A stretch of 64,000 nucleotides of DNA from an uncultured Actinomycetota bacterium (GCA_963723975.1 CAVRTI010000024.1:81954-145953), one strand, 5' to 3'. Positions 27,267 through 61,439 are shown, numbered from the stretch's first letter. Notes: generated by a model not told the origin, from the sequence alone. Numbers and translations: made by a program.

Positions 27267-27338
27267 TGCCCCCGGCAGGATTCGAACCTGCGCCACCGCC
27301 TCCGGAGGGCGGTGCTCTATCCCCTGAGCTACGGGGGC
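27267..27338 (-). tRNA. tRNA-Arg (anticodon CCG)
   Basis: The reverse complement is GCCCCCGTAGCTCAGGGGATAGAGCACCGCCCTCCGGAGGCGGTGGCGCAGGTTCGAATCCTGCCGGGGGCA. It has a 7-bp acceptor stem, D-arm GCTC/GAGC and anticodon stem CCGCC/GGCGG with loop CTCCGGA. The T-arm contains GTTCGAATC. Confidence 0.85.
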
Positions 27339-34536: not shown

Positions 34537-36460
34537 GTGTCCGACACCACCGACCTCCTCGACGCGCCCGCCACGGGCGGCGTCGAGGACGGCTCCGTCG
34601 ACTCCTCGGCGACCAAGCCCGCCCGCAAGCGCTCCGCCGGCCTGTCCGGCATGGTGCTCGCCGAGCTGCAGGGCCTGGCCGGCGAGCTCGGCATCAGGGG
34701 CACCGCCAAGATGCGCAAGGGACAGCTGATCGAGGCCATCAAGGAGCGCCAGGACGGCAGTTCCGGTGACGCGGCCCGCCAAGGCACCCGCCGAGCGCAG
34801 CCGCCGCGGGTCCGCTGCCCGCGCCGAGCGGCGGCCCACCGACAACGACGACAGCCAGCAGAACCCGCCGGCCGAGGCCGACGACAGCCAGCCGGGCGAC
34901 GGCCAGCCGGGCGAGCGGCGGCCGGCGACCGCGCCGCGACCGCGTCCGACCGCGGCGACCGGGCGGCCACCGCGAGCGAGGCCGGCGACCAGGGCGGCGA
35001 CCAGCAGGCCGGGCGGCAGCAGGGCGACCGCAAGCGCGAGGACCGTGGCGCCCAGCAGGGCAACCGTCCAGCAGGGCGGCCAGGGCGGGCAGGCCACCCA
35101 GGGCGGGCCGGCCAACCAGGGCGGGCAGGCCAACCGGGACGGGCAGGCCAACCGGGACGACGAGGACGACTTCGACGGTCGGGGCGGGCGGAGCCGTCGC
35201 CGTGGCCGCTACCGCGATCGCAACCGCAACCGCCGCGGCGGCCGGGACGGCTTCGCCCCGGGCGACGGCGACGCCCTGCCCGAGATCAGCGAGGACGACG
35301 TCCTGGTGCCGGTCGCCGGGATCCTCGACATCATGGACAACTACGCGTTCGTCCGGACCTCCGGCTACCTGCCGGGCCCGAACGACGTGTACGTCGCGCT
35401 GGCACAGGTGCGCAAGAGCGGCCTGCGCAAGGGTGACGCCATCACCGGCGCGGTCCGGGCGCCCCGTGAGGGTGAGCGCAAGGAGAAGTTCAACGCGCTC
35501 GTCCGCCTCGACACCGTGAACGGCGCCGAGCCGGACAAGTCGCGGAGCCGGGTGGAGTTCGGCAAGCTGACTCCGCTCTACCCCCAGGACCGGCTCCGCC
35601 TCGAGACCGAGCCCGGCATCCTCACCACCCGCGTCATCGACCTGGTCGCGCCGATCGGCAAGGGCCAGCGCGGCCTGATCGTCTCGCCGCCCAAGGCCGG
35701 CAAGACGATGGTGCTGCAGGCGATCGCCAACGCCATCACGACGAACAACCCCGAGGTCCACCTCATGGTCGTGCTGGTGGACGAGCGGCCGGAAGAGGTC
35801 ACCGACATGCAGCGGTCGGTCAAGGGCGAGGTCATCGCCTCGACGTTCGACCGGCCGGCCGAGGACCACACCATCGTCGCCGAGCTGGCGATCGAGCGGG
35901 CCAAGCGGCTCGTCGAGCTGGGGCACGACGTCGTCGTCCTGCTCGACTCGATCACCCGGCTCGGCCGCGCCTACAACCTCGCGGCCCCCGCGAGCGGGCG
36001 GATCCTGTCCGGGGGTGTCGACTCGACGGCGCTGTACCCGCCGAAGCGCTTCTTCGGTGCCGCCCGCAACATCGAGAACGGTGGGTCGCTGACCATCCTC
36101 GCCACGGCGCTGGTCGAGACCGGCTCGCGGATGGACGAGGTGATCTTCGAGGAGTTCAAGGGCACCGGCAACATGGAGCTCAAGCTCGACCGGAAGCTCG
36201 CCGACAAGCGGATCTTCCCGGCGGTGGACGTGGACCCGTCCGGCACCCGCAAGGAAGAGATCCTGATGGACCGCTCCGAGCTCCAGGTCACCTGGAAGCT
36301 CCGCCGGGTGCTGCACGCCCTCGAGACCCAGCAGGCGCTGGAGCTGCTCCTGGACCGGATGAAGAAGACGCAGAGCAACGCCGAGTTCCTCATGCAGGTG
36401 CAGCAGACGATGCCGATGCCGGGTAACGGCAACGGCAACGGCAGCTCGGACGAGGACTGA
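34537..36460 (+). CDS. rho: Transcription termination factor Rho, with a long R/G/Q/D-rich N-terminal insertion and an apparent 1-nt insertion near 34762-34768
   Basis: A Rho_N domain ([34 protein letters not shown]) lies in frame 1 from the GTG at 34537. The RNA-binding and ATPase domains ([23 protein letters not shown]...[17 protein letters not shown]...) lie in frame 2 from 34766. A ~330-nt 5' leader precedes the gene. Confidence 0.85.
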
Positions 36461-43244: not shown

Positions 43245-43350
43245 CGGCTGGACCTGCCTCTGGCAGACTGTCCCGCTGGTTCCGGTTCACGTCCCGCCGT
43301 CCGAGGTGGCGACGACCCGGCGACCGTCCCACCGTGAGGAGAGCACCACC

Positions 43351-43673: not shown

Positions 43674-44744
43674 GTGGAGGCCCCCGCTGAGATGCTCGCT
43701 GAGCACGCCCGCCTGGAGCAGGAGCTCGCCGACCCGGCCGTGCACGGCGACCAGGCCCGGGCCCGGGCCCTGGGCAAGCGCTACTCCGCGCTGACACCGG
43801 TGGTGGAGACCTCCCGCGAGCTGCAGGAGCTGGCGGGCGACCTGGCCACCGCGCGCGAGCTGGCGGTCGACGACGAGTCGTTCCGCGCCGAGGTGCCGGT
43901 CATGGAGGCCAGGCAGGCCGAGCTCGAGGCGCGGCTTCGGACCTTGCTGCTGCCGCGCGACGAGAACGACGACAAGGACGTCATCGTCGAGATCAAGGCC
44001 GGCGAGGGCGGCGAGGAGTCGGCGCTGTTCGCCGGAGACCTGATGCGGATGTACCTGCGCTACGCCGAGCGGGTCGGTTGGAAGACCGAGATCATCGAGG
44101 CCACCGAGACCGACATGGGCGGCTACAAGGACGTCCAGCTCGCCGTGAAGTCGCGTGGCATCCCCGCGCCCGGCCACGGGGTGTGGGCGCGGCTGAAGTA
44201 CGAGGGCGGCGTGCACCGCGTGCAGCGCGTCCCGGTGACCGAGTCCCAGGGCCGGATCCACACCAGTGCGGCAGGCGTCCTGGTGCTGCCCGAGGCCGAG
44301 GAGGTCGACGTGGAGATCGACCCGAACGACCTGCGCATCGACGTCTACCGCTCGTCCGGCCCGGGTGGACAGAGCGTGAACACCACCGACTCCGCGGTGC
44401 GGATCACCCATGTCCCCACCGGCATCGTCGCCTCCTGCCAGAACGAGAAGTCCCAGCTGCAGAACCGCGAGCAGGCGATGCGCATCCTGCGGGCCCGGCT
44501 GCTCGCCGCCGCGCAGGAGGCCGCCGACCAGGAGGCGTCGGACGCCCGGCGCAGCCAGGTGCGCACGGTCGACCGCTCCGAGCGGGTCCGCACCTACAAC
44601 TTCGCCGAGAACCGGATCGCCGACCACCGGGTCAACTTCAAGGCCTACAACCTCGACCAGGTCCTCGACGGTGACCTGGACGCGGTCGTCCAGGCGCTGG
44701 TCGACGCCGACACCGAGGCCAAGCTGGCTCACGCGGGTCAGTGA
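43674..44744 (+). CDS. prfA: Peptide chain release factor 1
   Basis: PxT-region and GGQ motif ([19 protein letters not shown]). Confidence 0.95.
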
Positions 44745-45580
44745 CCTCCCGACCCCTGCAGGCCGCCCTGGCCGACGCGACCGCTCGGCTCGAGGCGGCC
44801 GGCGTGCCGTCGGCCAGGCACGACGCGGAGGCGCTCGCGGCCCACTCGCTGGGCATCCAGCGGGTGGACCTCTGGCGGCACGACTCTCCCGGCGCGGCAT
44901 TCGGTGCGTACGTCGAGCGGCGGGCCGCCCGTGAGCCGCTGCAGCACATCACCGGGCTCGCGTACTTCCGGCACCTCACCCTGCGGGTCGGGCCCGGGGT
45001 GTTCGTGCCCCGACCTGAGACGGAGGTCGTGGTCGACGCCGTGCTGGCGGCGCTGAAGGGCACCGGGAGCCCACGGGTGGTCGACCTGTGCACCGGGTCC
45101 GGCGCCATCGCGCTCGCGGTGGCCACCGAGGTCCCCGGCAGCGAGGTGCACGCGGTCGAGCGGGAGCCGGCGGCGCACGCGTGGGCGGTCCGGAACTGTG
45201 CGGGGTCGCCGGTCGACCTGCGGCTGGGTGACATGGCGACCGCCTTCCCCGAGCTCGACGGCACCGTCGACGTCGTGGTGAGCAACCCGCCGTACATCCC
45301 GCTCGGCGCGGTGATCCGCGACCCGGAGGTCGCCGCGCACGACCCGGCCGGGTCGCTGTGGTCCGGCGACGACGGCCTGGACGCGATGCGCGTCGTCGAG
45401 CGGGTCGCTGCCCGGCTGCTGCGACCCGGCGGCCGGGTGGTGGCCGAGCACGCCGACCTCCAGGGCGCCTCGGCACCTGCCGTCTTCGCCGACCCCGCCC
45501 GGTGGCGCGACGTCTCCGACCACCGCGACCTCGCCGGCCGCGACCGCTTCGTCACCGCCGTCCGCCAGGATCGAAGTTGA
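44741..45580 (+). CDS. prmC: Release factor glutamine N5-methyltransferase
   Basis: An NPPY motif (VVSNPPYIP) and a SAM motif ([13 protein letters not shown]). A GTGA overlap couples it to prfA. Confidence 0.9.
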
Positions 45581-45661
45581 TCACGCTGGCGTGGTCAACT
45601 GCTGCTGGGTGCGGTGAGCTTGCCGCACCCAGCGACCGGTGATCACGCTGACGTGATCAAC
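45576..45661. repeat. Triple-hairpin palindromic intergenic repeat element, copy 1
   Basis: GTTGATCACGCtgGCGTGgTCAAC (45576-45599) + CTGGGTGCGG-tgagcttg-CCGCACCCAG (45605-45632) + GgTGATCACGCtgaCGTGATCAAC (45638-45661). It is near-identical to the element at 60820-60905. Confidence 0.65.
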
Positions 45662-45695: not shown

Positions 45696-46364
45696 ATGGG
45701 CTGGGTGCGGCGGTACGACATGGCCAGCGCGGCCGAGCGTCCGGTCGGGCTGGACCTGGCCAAGGACGCGGTGCGCCGCGGCGAGCTCGTCGTGCTGCCG
45801 ACCGACACGGTCTACGGCCTGGGCACCGACGCGTTCTCGCCGGACGCCGTGCGCGGACTGCTCACGGCCAAGGGCCGCGGCCGGGACATGCCGGTGCCCG
45901 TCCTGGTCGGCTCCCCGCGCACCCTCGACGGCATCGCCACGGGCCTGTCGGCGGCGGCGCGGGACCTGGTGGAGGCGTTCTGGCCGGGCGGCCTGACCGT
46001 GGTCGCCGCCGTCCAGCCGTCCCTGCAGTGGGACCTCGGGGAGACCGGCGGCACGGTGGCGGTCCGGATGCCGCTGCACCCGGTGGCCCTCGAGCTGCTG
46101 CGCGCCACCGGGCCGATGGCCGTCAGCAGCGCCAACCGCTCCGGGCAGCCACCCGCCACCACCTGCGACGACGCCGTCGAGCAGCTCGGCGAGTCGGTGT
46201 CGGTCTACCTGGACGGCGGGCCGTCCGGCGACCCGGTGCCCTCGACGATCGTCGACCTCACCGGCGAGGTGCCCCGTCTGCTGCGTCTGGGCGCGGTGAC
46301 CGCCGAGGCCCTCCGCTCGGTCTCCGGTGACCTGCTGACCGAGCCGTACAGTGATCCGACATGA
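45696..46364 (+). CDS. L-threonylcarbamoyladenylate synthase (Sua5/YwlC/TsaC family)
   Basis: VLPTDTVYGLGTDAFSPDAV...MPLHPVALELLRATGPMAVSSANRSGQPP. Confidence 0.85.
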   Translation: MGWVRRYDMASAAERPVGLDLAKDAVRRGELVVLPTDTVYGLGTDAFSPDAVRGLLTAKGRGRDMPVPVLVGSPRTLDGIATGLSAAARDLVEAFWPGGLTVVAAVQPSLQWDLGETGGTVAVRMPLHPVALELLRATGPMAVSSANRSGQPPATTCDDAVEQLGESVSVYLDGGPSGDPVPSTIVDLTGEVPRLLRLGAVTAEALRSVSGDLLTEPYSDPT

Positions 46365-59909: not shown

Positions 59910-60767
59910 ATGACTGGAACAACGCTTGCCGTCGTCGGGGCCGGGCTGATGGGTTCCGGCATCGCCCAGGTGGCCGCCGTCGCGGGGCACGACGTGGTGC
60001 TGCGCGACGTGACCGACGAGGCGCTCGGCAAGGGCCGCGCCGCCATCGAGAAGTCACTGACCCGGTTCGTGGCCAAGGGAACCCTCGAGCAGGACGACGC
60101 CGAGTCCGCCCTGGCGCGGATCACCACCACCACCGACCTCGAGGCCGTCGCCTCGGCGGACCTCGTGGTCGAGGCGGCGTTCGAGAGCATCGAGGTGAAG
60201 CGAGAGATCTTCCGCGAGCTGGACCGGATCTGCCGGGACGGCGCCGTGCTGGGCACCAACACCAGCGCGATCCCGATCACCCAGATCGCGTCGGTGACCG
60301 AGCGCCCCGAAGCGGTCGTCGGCATGCACTTCTTCTCGCCGGTGCCGATGATGGCGCTCTGCGAGCTGGTGCGCGGCTACAAGACCAGCGACGAGACCCT
60401 GGCCACCGCGCGGGCGTTCGCCGAGTCGGTCGGCAAGACCTGCGTCGTGGTCAACCGGGATGTCGCCGGCTTCGTGACCACCCGGCTGATCTGCGCGCTG
60501 GCGATGGAGGCGATCCGGCTGGTCGAGACCGGGGTCGCCTCCGCCGAGGACATCGACACCGCGTGCAAGCTCGGCTTCGGCCACGCCATGGGCCCGCTGG
60601 CCACCACCGACCTCACCGGGGTCGACATCCTGCGCGATGCGAGCATGAACATCTACACCGACACCGCGGACGAGAAGTTCTTCCCGCCGGAGTCGCTGTC
60701 CCGGATGGTCGCCGCGGGTGACCTCGGCCGCAAGTCCGGCCGCGGCTTCTACACCTACGACGCCTGA
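59910..60767 (+). CDS. 3-hydroxybutyryl-CoA / 3-hydroxyacyl-CoA dehydrogenase
   Basis: LAVVGAGLMGSGIAQVAA (NAD-binding) and a catalytic His/Glu region (HFFSPVPMMALCELV). Confidence 0.9.
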   Translation: MTGTTLAVVGAGLMGSGIAQVAAVAGHDVVLRDVTDEALGKGRAAIEKSLTRFVAKGTLEQDDAESALARITTTTDLEAVASADLVVEAAFESIEVKREIFRELDRICRDGAVLGTNTSAIPITQIASVTERPEAVVGMHFFSPVPMMALCELVRGYKTSDETLATARAFAESVGKTCVVVNRDVAGFVTTRLICALAMEAIRLVETGVASAEDIDTACKLGFGHAMGPLATTDLTGVDILRDASMNIYTDTADEKFFPPESLSRMVAAGDLGRKSGRGFYTYDA

Positions 60768-60819
60768 CCTCTGGGGCTGCCTCCCTTCCCGTTCGCCTCG
60801 CCCCGCCTCGCCCCGCGCC

Positions 60820-60905
60820 GTTGATCACGTCAGCGTGATCACCCGCCGCTGGGTGCGGCATGCACGCCGCACCCAGCAACCGTTGATCACGCCAGCGTGA
60901 TCAAC
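60820..60905. repeat. Triple-hairpin palindromic intergenic repeat element, copy 2, preceded by a GCCTCGCCCC x2 tandem
   Basis: GTTGATCACGtcaGCGTGATCAc (60820-60842) + CTGGGTGCGG-catgcacg-CCGCACCCAG (60849-60876) + GTTGATCACGccaGCGTGATCAAC (60882-60905). Confidence 0.65.
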
Positions 60906-60920: not shown

Positions 60921-60965
60921 GGAGTCACTGGAGTCACAGAGGTCACAAAAGTCACAGGAGTCACA
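60921..60965. repeat. Five tandem copies of a 9-bp unit containing GTCAC
   Basis: gagtcactg / gagtcacag / aggtcacaa / aagtcacag / gagtcacag. GTCAC recurs at an exact 9-bp period from 60924 to 60964. Confidence 0.6.
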
Positions 60966-61073
60966 GCGTGGCGCCGCGTCGTGCCCAGGGTCAGGCTCTA
61001 CGGTCGGAACGCGTGACCGACGGGGCAACCTGGCACCGCCTTCGCGCGTCTGACCTTCCGAGGAGGTGACCAG

Positions 61074-61390
61074 ATGGTCGTCGACATGGCGAGCGGGCAG
61101 GAGATCGCGCTGTCCGGCCGGCTGGACGTGAGCGCAGTGGCCGAGGTGCGCGCCGCGCTGCACGACGCCCTGGACGCCGGTTCCGGCGACCTGGTGGTCG
61201 ACCTGGCCGGCGTCGAGGTCATCGACGCGACCGGTCTGGGTGTCCTGCTCGGGGCCGACCGCCGGGCCAAGCTGCTGGACCGCCGGATCGTCCTGCGCGA
61301 CGCGGCTCCCCCGCGTCCGTGCGGATCCTGCGGGTCACCCGGCTGCACCGGGTGCTCACCCTCGATGCCCCGGTCGGCGCCACCGTCTGA
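61074..61390 (+). CDS. STAS-domain anti-sigma factor antagonist. An apparent 1-nt insertion lies near 61305-61312
   Basis: MVVDMASGQEIALSGRLDVSAVAEVRAALHDALDAGSGDLVVDLAGVEVIDATGLGVLLGADRRAKLLDRRIVLRDAAPP, then the +1 frame VRILRVTRLHRVLTLDAPVGATV*. Confidence 0.7.
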
Positions 61391-61439
61391 GCCGCCACCC
61401 GCGGCCCCGGCCGGTGTTACCCGCCGGTAGGCTCCGGCC

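Follow-up and report, generated by a model that had tools for sequence, protein, structure and literature searches.

A dispersed 86-bp palindromic repeat family of Actinomycetes and its candidate nuclease partner

Described repeat systems and the family under study

To our knowledge, small palindromic repeats associated with a dedicated enzyme have been well studied only in Proteobacteria, in the form of REP/REPIN-RAYT systems. REPINs are doublets of REP sequences able to form hairpins, and accompany in Gammaproteobacteria a single-copy HUH tyrosine transposase, the RAYT (bioRxiv 10.1101/2021.07.10.451892). The family described here, two members of which reside in a 64-kb stretch of DNA from an uncultured Actinomycetota bacterium (64,000 nucleotides, hereafter called the window), resembles these systems in several respects. 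Its units are palindromic doublets in the ~90-100 bp range, which may fold either as one long hairpin or as small separate ones; they are extragenic, and occur in tens of copies; they persist vertically at orthologous sites, and decay in some lineages; finally, a low-copy gene, in this case a candidate enzyme gene, has repeat units on both sides. In contrast to REPIN-RAYT systems, the hosts are Actinomycetes, the repeats carry no GTAG head, the arms of the subfamily found in the window are direct and not inverted repeats, as judged by their spacers, and the flanked gene plausibly encodes an AbiEi winged-helix/Vsr-like nuclease, and not an HUH Y1 enzyme. Lacking a GTAG head and, in the 80 loci analysed, a recurrent HUH enzyme, the family cannot be regarded as a classical REPIN.

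IS-derived MITEs (Correia, Nezha and IS630-type elements) are the other natural term of comparison. As MITEs, the repeats are small, non-coding, bounded by terminal inverted repeats and present in many copies, and have longer relatives in which the same ends surround one ORF. In contrast to MITEs, they are not flanked by target-site duplications, they are palindromic over their full extent, constant in size and marked by compensatory evolution, and the ORF of the long unit, which combines AbiEi_4 and a predicted Vsr-like fold, features no Pfam transposase domain. The absence of target duplications and of a recognised transposase sets the family apart from classical MITEs as well. REPIN-RAYT is the closest functional analogue, MITE the closest structural category.

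Other resemblances are more limited. Enterobacterial BIMEs, which are mosaics of REP/PU sequences, are similarly modular, as the 24-bp arm described below is combined with different hairpin modules in two-arm and one-arm forms, but the sequences are unrelated. Elements of the PATE type, related to IS200/IS605, have subterminal hairpins and a Y1 TnpA partner, lack target duplications, and insert 3' of a fixed target of 4-5 nt. In the present family hairpins are found and target duplications are not; no Y1 gene was found in 80 loci, and no flanking tetranucleotide is conserved across subfamilies. In integron attC sites the motifs are arranged in the order R''(RYYYAAC)...R'(GTTRRRY), and cassettes form arrays beside the integrase. 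Here the order is reversed (GTT...AAC), and solitary copies reside among housekeeping genes, in contrast to attC sites. What we take to be resemblances to attC, FNR/CRP boxes, parS and the LexA box do not fit in spacing or orientation. No prior description of the repeat family was found in Rfam or in the searchable literature, nor was the associated ORF found to be described there as a mobile-element protein (ISfinder and Dfam were outside the search).

The window copies and the architecture of the family

Copy 1 of the element spans residues 45576..45661 of the window, between prmC (44741-45580, + strand) and sua5 (45696-46364, + strand). Copy 2 spans residues 60820..60905, between a 3-hydroxyacyl-CoA dehydrogenase gene (hbd; 59910-60767, + strand), the stop codon of which is found 52 nt before the repeat, and a STAS gene (61074-61430, + strand) starting 168 nt past it. 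The two copies score 74 and 78.8 bits, respectively, with model R1, and no third copy was found in the 64-kb window by the covariance model. Both ~86-nt repeats had been correctly located in the first-pass annotation, which placed them between convergent or tandem gene ends. The two gene pairs are tandem, as both copies lie between + strand genes, and none is convergent.

Each copy is made up of two 24-bp arms and a central hairpin. In copy 1 the left arm (45576..45599) reads GTTGATCACG-CTGG-CGTGGTCAAC, the right arm (45638..45661) GGTGATCACG-CTGA-CGTGATCAAC, with 9/10 pairs in either arm, and the hairpin (45605-45632, or 45604..45633 if the flanking G...C is included) is formed by CTGGGTGCGG and CCGCACCCAG around the loop TGAGCTTG. 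In copy 2 the left arm (60820..60843) reads GTTGATCACG-TCAG-CGTGATCACC (9/10 pairs), the hairpin (60849..60876) features the same CTGGGTGCGG and CCGCACCCAG sequences around the loop CATGCACG, and the right arm (60882..60905), GTTGATCACG-CCAG-CGTGATCAAC, is a perfect 10-bp inverted repeat. The central hairpin with a perfect 10-bp stem and a loop of 8 residues, reported earlier, was thus seen in both copies. Arms conform to the general scheme GTTGATCACG-N4-CGTGATCAAC, in which two inverted 10-mers form 9 or 10 pairs out of 10, and the spacer is 4 nt long, not 3 nt as originally proposed. The two copies had been said to share the same architecture: all parts are indeed common to both, but the two copies have opposite orientations, as their sequences are 89% identical over 94 nt when compared as reverse complements, and 80% identical when compared directly. 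No relationship was seen between the flanks of one copy and those of the other. The pattern CTGGGTGCGG-N8-CCGCACCCAG occurs twice in the window, versus 0.02 occurrences expected by chance. Allowing for up to one mismatch, the 10-mer GTTGATCACG occurs 15 times versus 2.7 expected, and 8 of the 15 occurrences fall inside the two copies.

A scan of genomes, one for each species, in which both terminal 10-mers had to lie 50-80 nt apart, led to the identification of at least 120 loci. The length of the matches is sharply peaked, since 71 of the 124 matches listed are exactly 86 nt long. Among the matches listed, 86-nt copies have been identified in Jiangellaceae, Angustibacter, Acidothermaceae and many Actinomycetota soil MAGs, and the form found in Pseudonocardiaceae measures 85 nt. 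Matches of other length found in other phyla look like chance occurrences, and two matches in viral contigs, which have the wrong length, were treated as such. Plasmid sequences searched by BLAST with the element gave no match. The conservation of the termini among scanned copies is in part built in, because the search pattern required exact termini; yet, almost no extra copies with degenerate termini were detected by model R1 in 620 kb of flanking DNA. Family members fall into four sequence clusters, identical in length, the interiors of which are less than 62% identical. The conserved end boxes GTTGATCACG(T) and (A)CGTGATCAAC are doubled into the 24-bp palindromic arm in the window's subfamily, and the unit can be described as an 86-bp near-palindrome with an extension of up to ~4 nt on each side. 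Some copies are composite or arranged in tandem, and the element occurs facing either way with respect to transcription. Searching metagenomes for the exact 24-bp arm retrieved 83 loci, with 17 instances of the two-arm 86-nt type, in which the arm spacing is 62 nt, and 69 one-arm instances, in which arm and hairpin are followed by a degenerate second arm. The notion that the sequences are dispersed, structured intergenic repeats of the REP/MITE type, put forward in the first-pass annotation, is borne out by the many copies found in many genomes, and by the presence/absence of the element at an orthologous site.

Three consecutive hairpins had been envisaged as the conserved architecture of the element. 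Because of the form A-A'-X-X'-A-A', the window copies can fold both as one long hairpin and as three hairpins. For both strands of both copies, energy minimisation yields a single long, imperfect hairpin (-55 to -68 kcal/mol, z ~ -8 to -11); folding into three hairpins costs 8-10 kcal/mol, though energies of -45 to -59 kcal/mol are still reached. Covariation was assessed on an ungapped alignment of 73 copies. In these, the long hairpin is 85.7% paired, versus 67% in shuffled sequences and at most 42% with slid partners, and changes on both sides were found in all the 29 variable pairs (29/29). In contrast, pairing in the arm hairpins of the three-hairpin scheme reaches only 56% and 44% in the same 73 copies, with zero compensatory change. 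The family-wide architecture is therefore a single long palindrome with strong covariation, and not a series of three hairpins. Self-palindromic 24-bp arms are found in ~15-21 copies, all members of the window's subfamily. In these, the 4-nt spacers of the two arms are usually direct repeats (TCCA/TCCA, TCAG/TCAG), so that arms behave as modules. The centres of the arms are 62 bp apart, a distance corresponding to ~ six helical turns.

The difference between the loops of the two window copies had been taken as a sign of selection for structure, but no signal was detected at the RNA level. In copies found in a tandem context, oriented by transcription, sense-strand mismatches are of the G.U type in 35 cases, and of the A.C type in 41. 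The lack of a G.U excess indicates that complementarity is of the Watson-Crick type on both strands, as in a DNA palindrome, rather than in an RNA selected on one strand. A terminator had also been suggested. None of the two copies features the T/U-tract of an intrinsic terminator after the GC-rich hairpin, and the 3' flanks are G-rich. The absence of both a T-tract and a wobble-pair bias on the sense strand leaves the canonical intrinsic terminator unsupported. At the gathering threshold, Rfam models identified in the window only a tRNA and an L31 leader, and nothing for the repeats; at the E-value threshold, only sub-threshold look-alikes of miRNA precursors were found for the repeats.

Insertion at gene ends and the prmC|sua5 site

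The stop codon of prmC (TGA, 45578..45580, + strand) lies inside the terminus of copy 1, in the GTTGA sequence which makes up the first five bases of the element. As the stop is provided by the element terminus, the PrmC protein ends ...DRS*, and PrmC homologues with this ending mark the filled state of the site. In the window and in L125-L128, in which PrmC is 81-86% identical to the window's, the site is filled by an element of identical position and orientation, and in L121 by a decayed copy, for six lineages in all; the identity of PrmC ranges from 81 to 100% across lineages sharing site, orientation and sequence. Only a remnant of the right arm is found in L122. The site is empty in L124 and L123, in which PrmC is 86% and 80% identical, respectively. 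In these two, PrmC keeps a longer ancestral tail, and the stop codon overlaps the ATG start of sua5 (CTGATGG). By comparing filled and empty sites, the insertion can be defined as the 86-nt core plus at most ~4 nt. In the window, the direct effects of copy 1 are the truncation of PrmC, and the breaking of the ancestral translational coupling of prmC and sua5. Both copies add a hairpin of ~40 bp to the transcript, and some effect at this level is likely. L099 is not an orthologue of the prmC site, despite sharing a contig with P0007.

Elements residing at this site are 93-99% identical to the window copy, and identity at the third codon positions of the flanking genes is 62-87%. The left 41 nt of the element are 100% identical among L125-L128 and the window, and the identity of the downstream spacer varies from 39 to 84%. 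The L121 element is only 62% identical, though its flanks are among the most similar. It follows that constraint or homogenisation has acted on the sequence in most lineages, and has been lifted in one. Conservation exceeding that of synonymous sites calls for an explanation, whether a constraint imposed by protein recognition, gene conversion or a host function. In a PrmC tree, which is indicative only since obtained by simple neighbour-joining, empty sites are nested among filled ones, which would imply that the element was either lost precisely, or gained more than once at this very position. The comparison among relatives shows an element which behaves as an insertion, and has persisted vertically for long at an orthologous site.

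Features of the insertion process can be deduced from the flanks. The first-pass annotation had proposed to search for target-site duplications: direct duplications of at least 4 nt were found in only 1 of 71 copies. The palindrome runs exactly 4 nt further into the flanks in 13 of the 71 copies. The 65 copies with called neighbours are located between convergent (24), tandem (33) or divergent (8) gene pairs. Nearly all copies reside within ~70 nt of a stop codon, and ~13 gene ends take their stop from the element's own TGA. Read on either strand, at least 40 nt of 5' sequence have a C content of 47-52%, the left flank being C-rich and the right one G-rich. Ordinary post-stop regions at these loci are 36-40% C, and richness in C does not characterise 3' flanks in general. 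At prmC|sua5, neither the C-rich nor the G-rich flank belongs to the element, as the empty sites have the same flanks, and the two contexts are older than the insertion. The hypothesis that the palindromic target GTTGATCAAC is duplicated upon insertion was similarly ruled out, because empty sites do not contain GTTGATCAAC. The motif CCGTCC is enriched near the copies, yet is found at only 20 of 79. In conclusion, insertion takes place without target duplication, at C-rich|G-rich junctions located at the 3' ends of genes.

The long unit, its predicted nuclease and competing explanations

Inward-facing one-arm ends have been found 1.28-1.37 kb apart, each pair surrounding one ORF of 327-367 aa. 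Five units, found at three or more loci, are complete (L147, L207, L214, L135 and L178), and in all five the arms are physically associated with the gene, which encodes the putative nuclease discussed below; additional units (L172, L205 and L151) are cut by contig ends. In one MAG, 86-nt copies (L001, L064, L071 and L119) and a full-length unit (L214:2416-3710) coexist in the same 3.5-Mb contig, and the ends of the unit align with the 86-nt copies of that MAG. At the left end of the unit, an arm with the spacer TGGA is followed by a hairpin; at the right end, a hairpin is followed by an arm with the spacer TCCA. L001 is made by the arm with TGGA, the hairpin found in the unit, and the arm with TCCA. 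The 86-bp form corresponds to left arm, hairpin and right arm. Both ends of the ~1.3-kb unit resemble an 86-nt copy in which the inner arm is degenerate, and the relation can be read in two ways: either the short form is a MITE which results from the fusion of two ends, or the enzyme gene is lodged between two repeat units, as RAYT genes are. At L024, two copies located 1.2 kb apart enclose ordinary genes, and no enzyme.

One locus, bounded by genes for a carboxyltransferase and a carbamate-kinase-like protein, hosts L214, L207 and L147; L172 and L170 reside at another, L135 and L178 at a third. At the first locus, neighbouring genes are 78-92% identical, the ORF only ~60%. The L172 ORF is closer to the L147 ORF than the latter is to the L207 ORF, though L147 and L207 share the same locus. 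As ORF kinship does not follow the locus, the ORF-bearing unit must have moved between loci or genomes, and these relationships provide evidence that the unit may move, or evolve, as a selfish gene. At the same time, the occurrence of three full-length units at one locus in related genomes suggests that the ORF-bearing unit may be largely vertical, and not actively transposing. Clustering of all the ORFs in 80 genome loci revealed no recurrent transposase, and no recurring family of Y1 transposases. No copy of the nuclease gene was found within the 64-kb window, no ORF was linked to clusters 1, 2 and 4, the subfamilies without palindromic arms, and no AbiEii nucleotidyltransferase toxin gene was found inside or beside the unit.

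We know of no transposase family which may include the ORF protein. Only an N-terminal AbiEi_4 winged helix, and no transposase domain, was detected by Pfam; PADLOC AbiEi models match residues 4-180 (1e-17), and no match was found in NCBIfam. The AbiEi-like part makes up the N-terminal two-thirds of the ORF. The C-terminal domain is below every Pfam and NCBIfam threshold, the best hit being a sub-threshold DUF559 in one relative, and nothing significant was found by a profile search against PDB sequences, so that the assignment as a nuclease rests on the predicted fold. An AlphaFold model derived from 63 homologues (pLDDT 89.9) was compared to the PDB by Foldseek. The AbiEi structure 6y8q and Rv2827c (1zel) were matched with probability 1.00, and the C-terminal domain, which has an alpha-beta-beta-beta-alpha-beta topology, matched I-Bth0305I (0.97) and Vsr (0.96). 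Residues D239, E250, D252 and K256 are invariant, and map on or beside the beta2/beta3 strands. According to the model, the ORF protein would be a fusion of an AbiEi-type winged-helix module and a PD-(D/E)xK nuclease fold similar to Vsr/DUF559. The protein family includes 1,962 clusters at 50% identity (E<=1e-30).

AbiEi proteins bind inverted repeats in a cooperative manner (PMC7319586), and Vsr-like domains include a family of homing endonucleases (PMC3239194, PMC3424549). Homing endonucleases of the Vsr-like (EDxHD) type, of which I-Bth0305I is an example, are similar to the ORF protein in the C-terminal fold, and the ORF is, as they are, fast-evolving and selfish in behaviour, being 60% identical where neighbours are 78-92% identical. 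In contrast to homing endonuclease genes, the ORF is found in no intron or intein, is fused to an AbiEi module, and has non-coding derivatives scattered over many unrelated sites, a pattern that homing does not generate. Similarly, the ORF resembles AbiE type IV toxin-antitoxin systems in its N-terminal two-thirds, but differs from them because it has no adjoining AbiEii toxin gene, and a nuclease-like C-terminus.

On balance, we favour as reasonably probable the view that the window repeats are non-autonomous, MITE/REPIN-like copies of a mobile-element family of Actinomycetes, and that the AbiEi/Vsr-like nuclease is their probable partner. Dimers of the protein would use the winged helix to bind to the palindromic arms, and the nuclease domain would cut at or near the arms; by doing so, the protein would mobilise, or maintain, short copies in trans. 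The nuclease may be the enzyme which moves the repeats, but by itself does not account for the integration of DNA at new sites. The idea that the arms are a protein-binding site, already formulated in the first-pass annotation, gains indirect support, since the arms flank a gene which plausibly encodes an AbiEi-type winged helix. A more ambitious proposal, drawn by analogy, is that repeats and nuclease could form a widespread, mostly vertical enzyme-repeat partnership, similar to REPIN-RAYT but relying on a PD-(D/E)xK enzyme instead of an HUH or DDE one, and hence a new class of prokaryotic element. We advance it tentatively, as the full proposal is rather less probable than its negation, though there is a substantial probability that nuclease and repeats together represent a new class of element.

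Alternatively, the repeats could be RNA-level devices, i.e. 3'-UTR or intercistronic hairpins working as U-tract-independent terminators, insulators, mRNA stabilisers or RNase III sites, and spread because beneficial to the host. The proximity of nearly all copies to a stop codon (within ~70 nt), their rarity between divergent genes, the high stability of the hairpins and the marked conservation at prmC|sua5 fit this hypothesis, and REP elements have been reported to affect termination and mRNA stability (bioRxiv 10.1101/2021.07.10.451892). We deem it unlikely, because T-tract terminators are missing, elements are found in both orientations relative to transcription, G.U mismatches on the sense strand do not exceed A.C ones (35 vs 41), and no Rfam model matches the repeats; moreover, the sequence is conserved, and not pairing alone, and the same ends flank the nuclease gene. 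No more probable is the hypothesis that the repeats are operator or decoy sites of the AbiEi-like protein, i.e. dispersed binding sites, currently immobile, which serve the host in nucleoid organisation or regulation. The palindromic nature of the 24-bp arms, the distance of 62 bp, or ~ six helical turns, between arm centres, the cooperative binding of AbiEi to inverted repeats (PMC7319586), the strong sequence conservation at an orthologous site and the location of the ORF at a fixed locus in three genomes are all expected on such grounds. Against this view, the sites are found at the 3' ends of genes and not at promoters, presence/absence and decay are seen at the same site, some copies are composite or in tandem, and palindromic arms are missing from most subfamilies; moreover, the protein features a nuclease-like domain with invariant acidic residues.

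A classical REP/REPIN family moved by a RAYT, an HUH Y1 transposase, would equally be extragenic, consist of palindromic doublets of ~90 nt, and be vertical and long-lived, with decay in one lineage, in agreement with the description of REPINs. This explanation appears very improbable: a GTAG-type head is missing, the ORFs of 80 loci include no recurrent Y1 transposase, the repeat-flanked gene product has a different fold, and REPIN-RAYT systems have been described for Gammaproteobacteria. Finally, the presence of only two copies in the window might suggest chance palindromes, or, as initially contemplated, the leftovers of one segmental duplication. This can be practically dismissed, given that the central pattern has an expectation of 0.02, the flanks of the two copies are unrelated, and hundreds of related copies reside elsewhere, in many genomes.

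If the partnership between the repeats and the AbiEi/Vsr-like nuclease is true, it would have its own insertion mechanism, in which the target is not duplicated and C-rich|G-rich junctions at the ends of genes are preferred. With this family, repeats served by a dedicated enzyme would be known from high-GC Gram-positive bacteria as well, and the candidate enzyme, a member of a large protein family whose only annotations are 'hypothetical' or 'AbiEi-domain', would belong to a different catalytic class. Whatever their mode of propagation, the elements reshape genes, by donating stop codons, cutting C-termini short, as in PrmC, and separating translationally coupled genes. They can also mislead searches for terminators or small RNAs, and break metagenome assemblies. 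Short forms exceed full-length units by ~10:1 in our sample, and many homologues of the ORF reside on contigs of 1.2-1.9 kb, as is typical of repeats at which assemblies break.

Gene ends modified by the element

Insertion of copy 1 (45576-45661) of the 86-nt palindromic element has shortened PrmC, the product of the gene located at 44741-45580 of the window. In lineages in which the site between prmC and sua5 is filled by the element the protein terminates with ...TAVRQDRS*, and in those in which the site is empty with ...TAVRAGATMAAGEGTE(G/A)*, the stop codon overlapping the ATG of sua5; a remnant of the old PrmC tail is still legible in the DNA downstream of the element. Termini of the element are used as gene ends elsewhere as well. 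At L044, L075 and L116, three other loci that carry the element, both convergent neighbouring genes use as stop codons the TGA triplets found at the two termini, and the element thus constitutes the whole intergenic spacer.

Copy 1 has GCTGGGTGCGG as the 5' arm of its central hairpin, and an identical sequence is found at 45699-45709, as codons 2-5 of sua5. It is kept as coding sequence in all sua5 orthologues, those next to empty sites included. The match with the hairpin arm may be due to chance. Alternatively, GCTGGGTGCGG in the mRNA could pair with the 3' arm of the copy 1 hairpin, as an alternative to the hairpin itself.

Flanks, composites and a diverged relative

The CCGTCC motif is 8.7-fold enriched in the flanks of the element, yet no more than 20 of 79 copies have it. 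At L092, L098, L081 and L070 the copies are closely bordered by runs of CCGTCCG/CCGTCCGCC repeats. In one Jiangellaceae MAG a 62-nt partial copy is directly followed by a complete copy at three loci (L025:5069, L028:99-246 and L069:3328-3475), and this recurrence implies that composites also propagate. A tandem duplication with a period of 143 nt, comprising the element together with its flank, occupies L119:5630-5858. At L207, which hosts a full-length unit (element-like ends around an ORF for a nuclease-like protein), the sequence GATCAAC-TCGGGTCGGGCGG, corresponding to the final 7 nt of the right arm plus flank, is repeated three times beyond that arm (2006-2075).

A diverged relative of the element resides at L106:6998-7080, where the arms read GTGACCACGT-N-ACGTGGTCAC in place of GTTGATCACG. 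The sequence of these arms suggests that sister families with altered boxes exist.

Repeats beside copy 2 and other features of the window

Short repeats adjoin copy 2 (60820-60905) on both sides. Upstream, a 10-nt repeat (CGCCTCGCCC x2.3, 60794-60816) is part of the C-rich left flank. Downstream, a 9-nt tandem repeat (GGAGTCACA x5.1, 60921-60966) precedes by ~110 nt the start of the STAS gene, which encodes an anti-sigma antagonist-like protein, and may be a regulatory repeat. The L31-Actinobacteria ribosomal leader found upstream of rpmE (43276-43325) and the single tRNA gene (27267-27338) are ordinary features. At 35071-35160 the repeat finder detected an 18-nt periodic repeat (family D7) made of at least four GCAGGGCGGCCAGGGCGG-like units, probably a coding low-complexity repeat.
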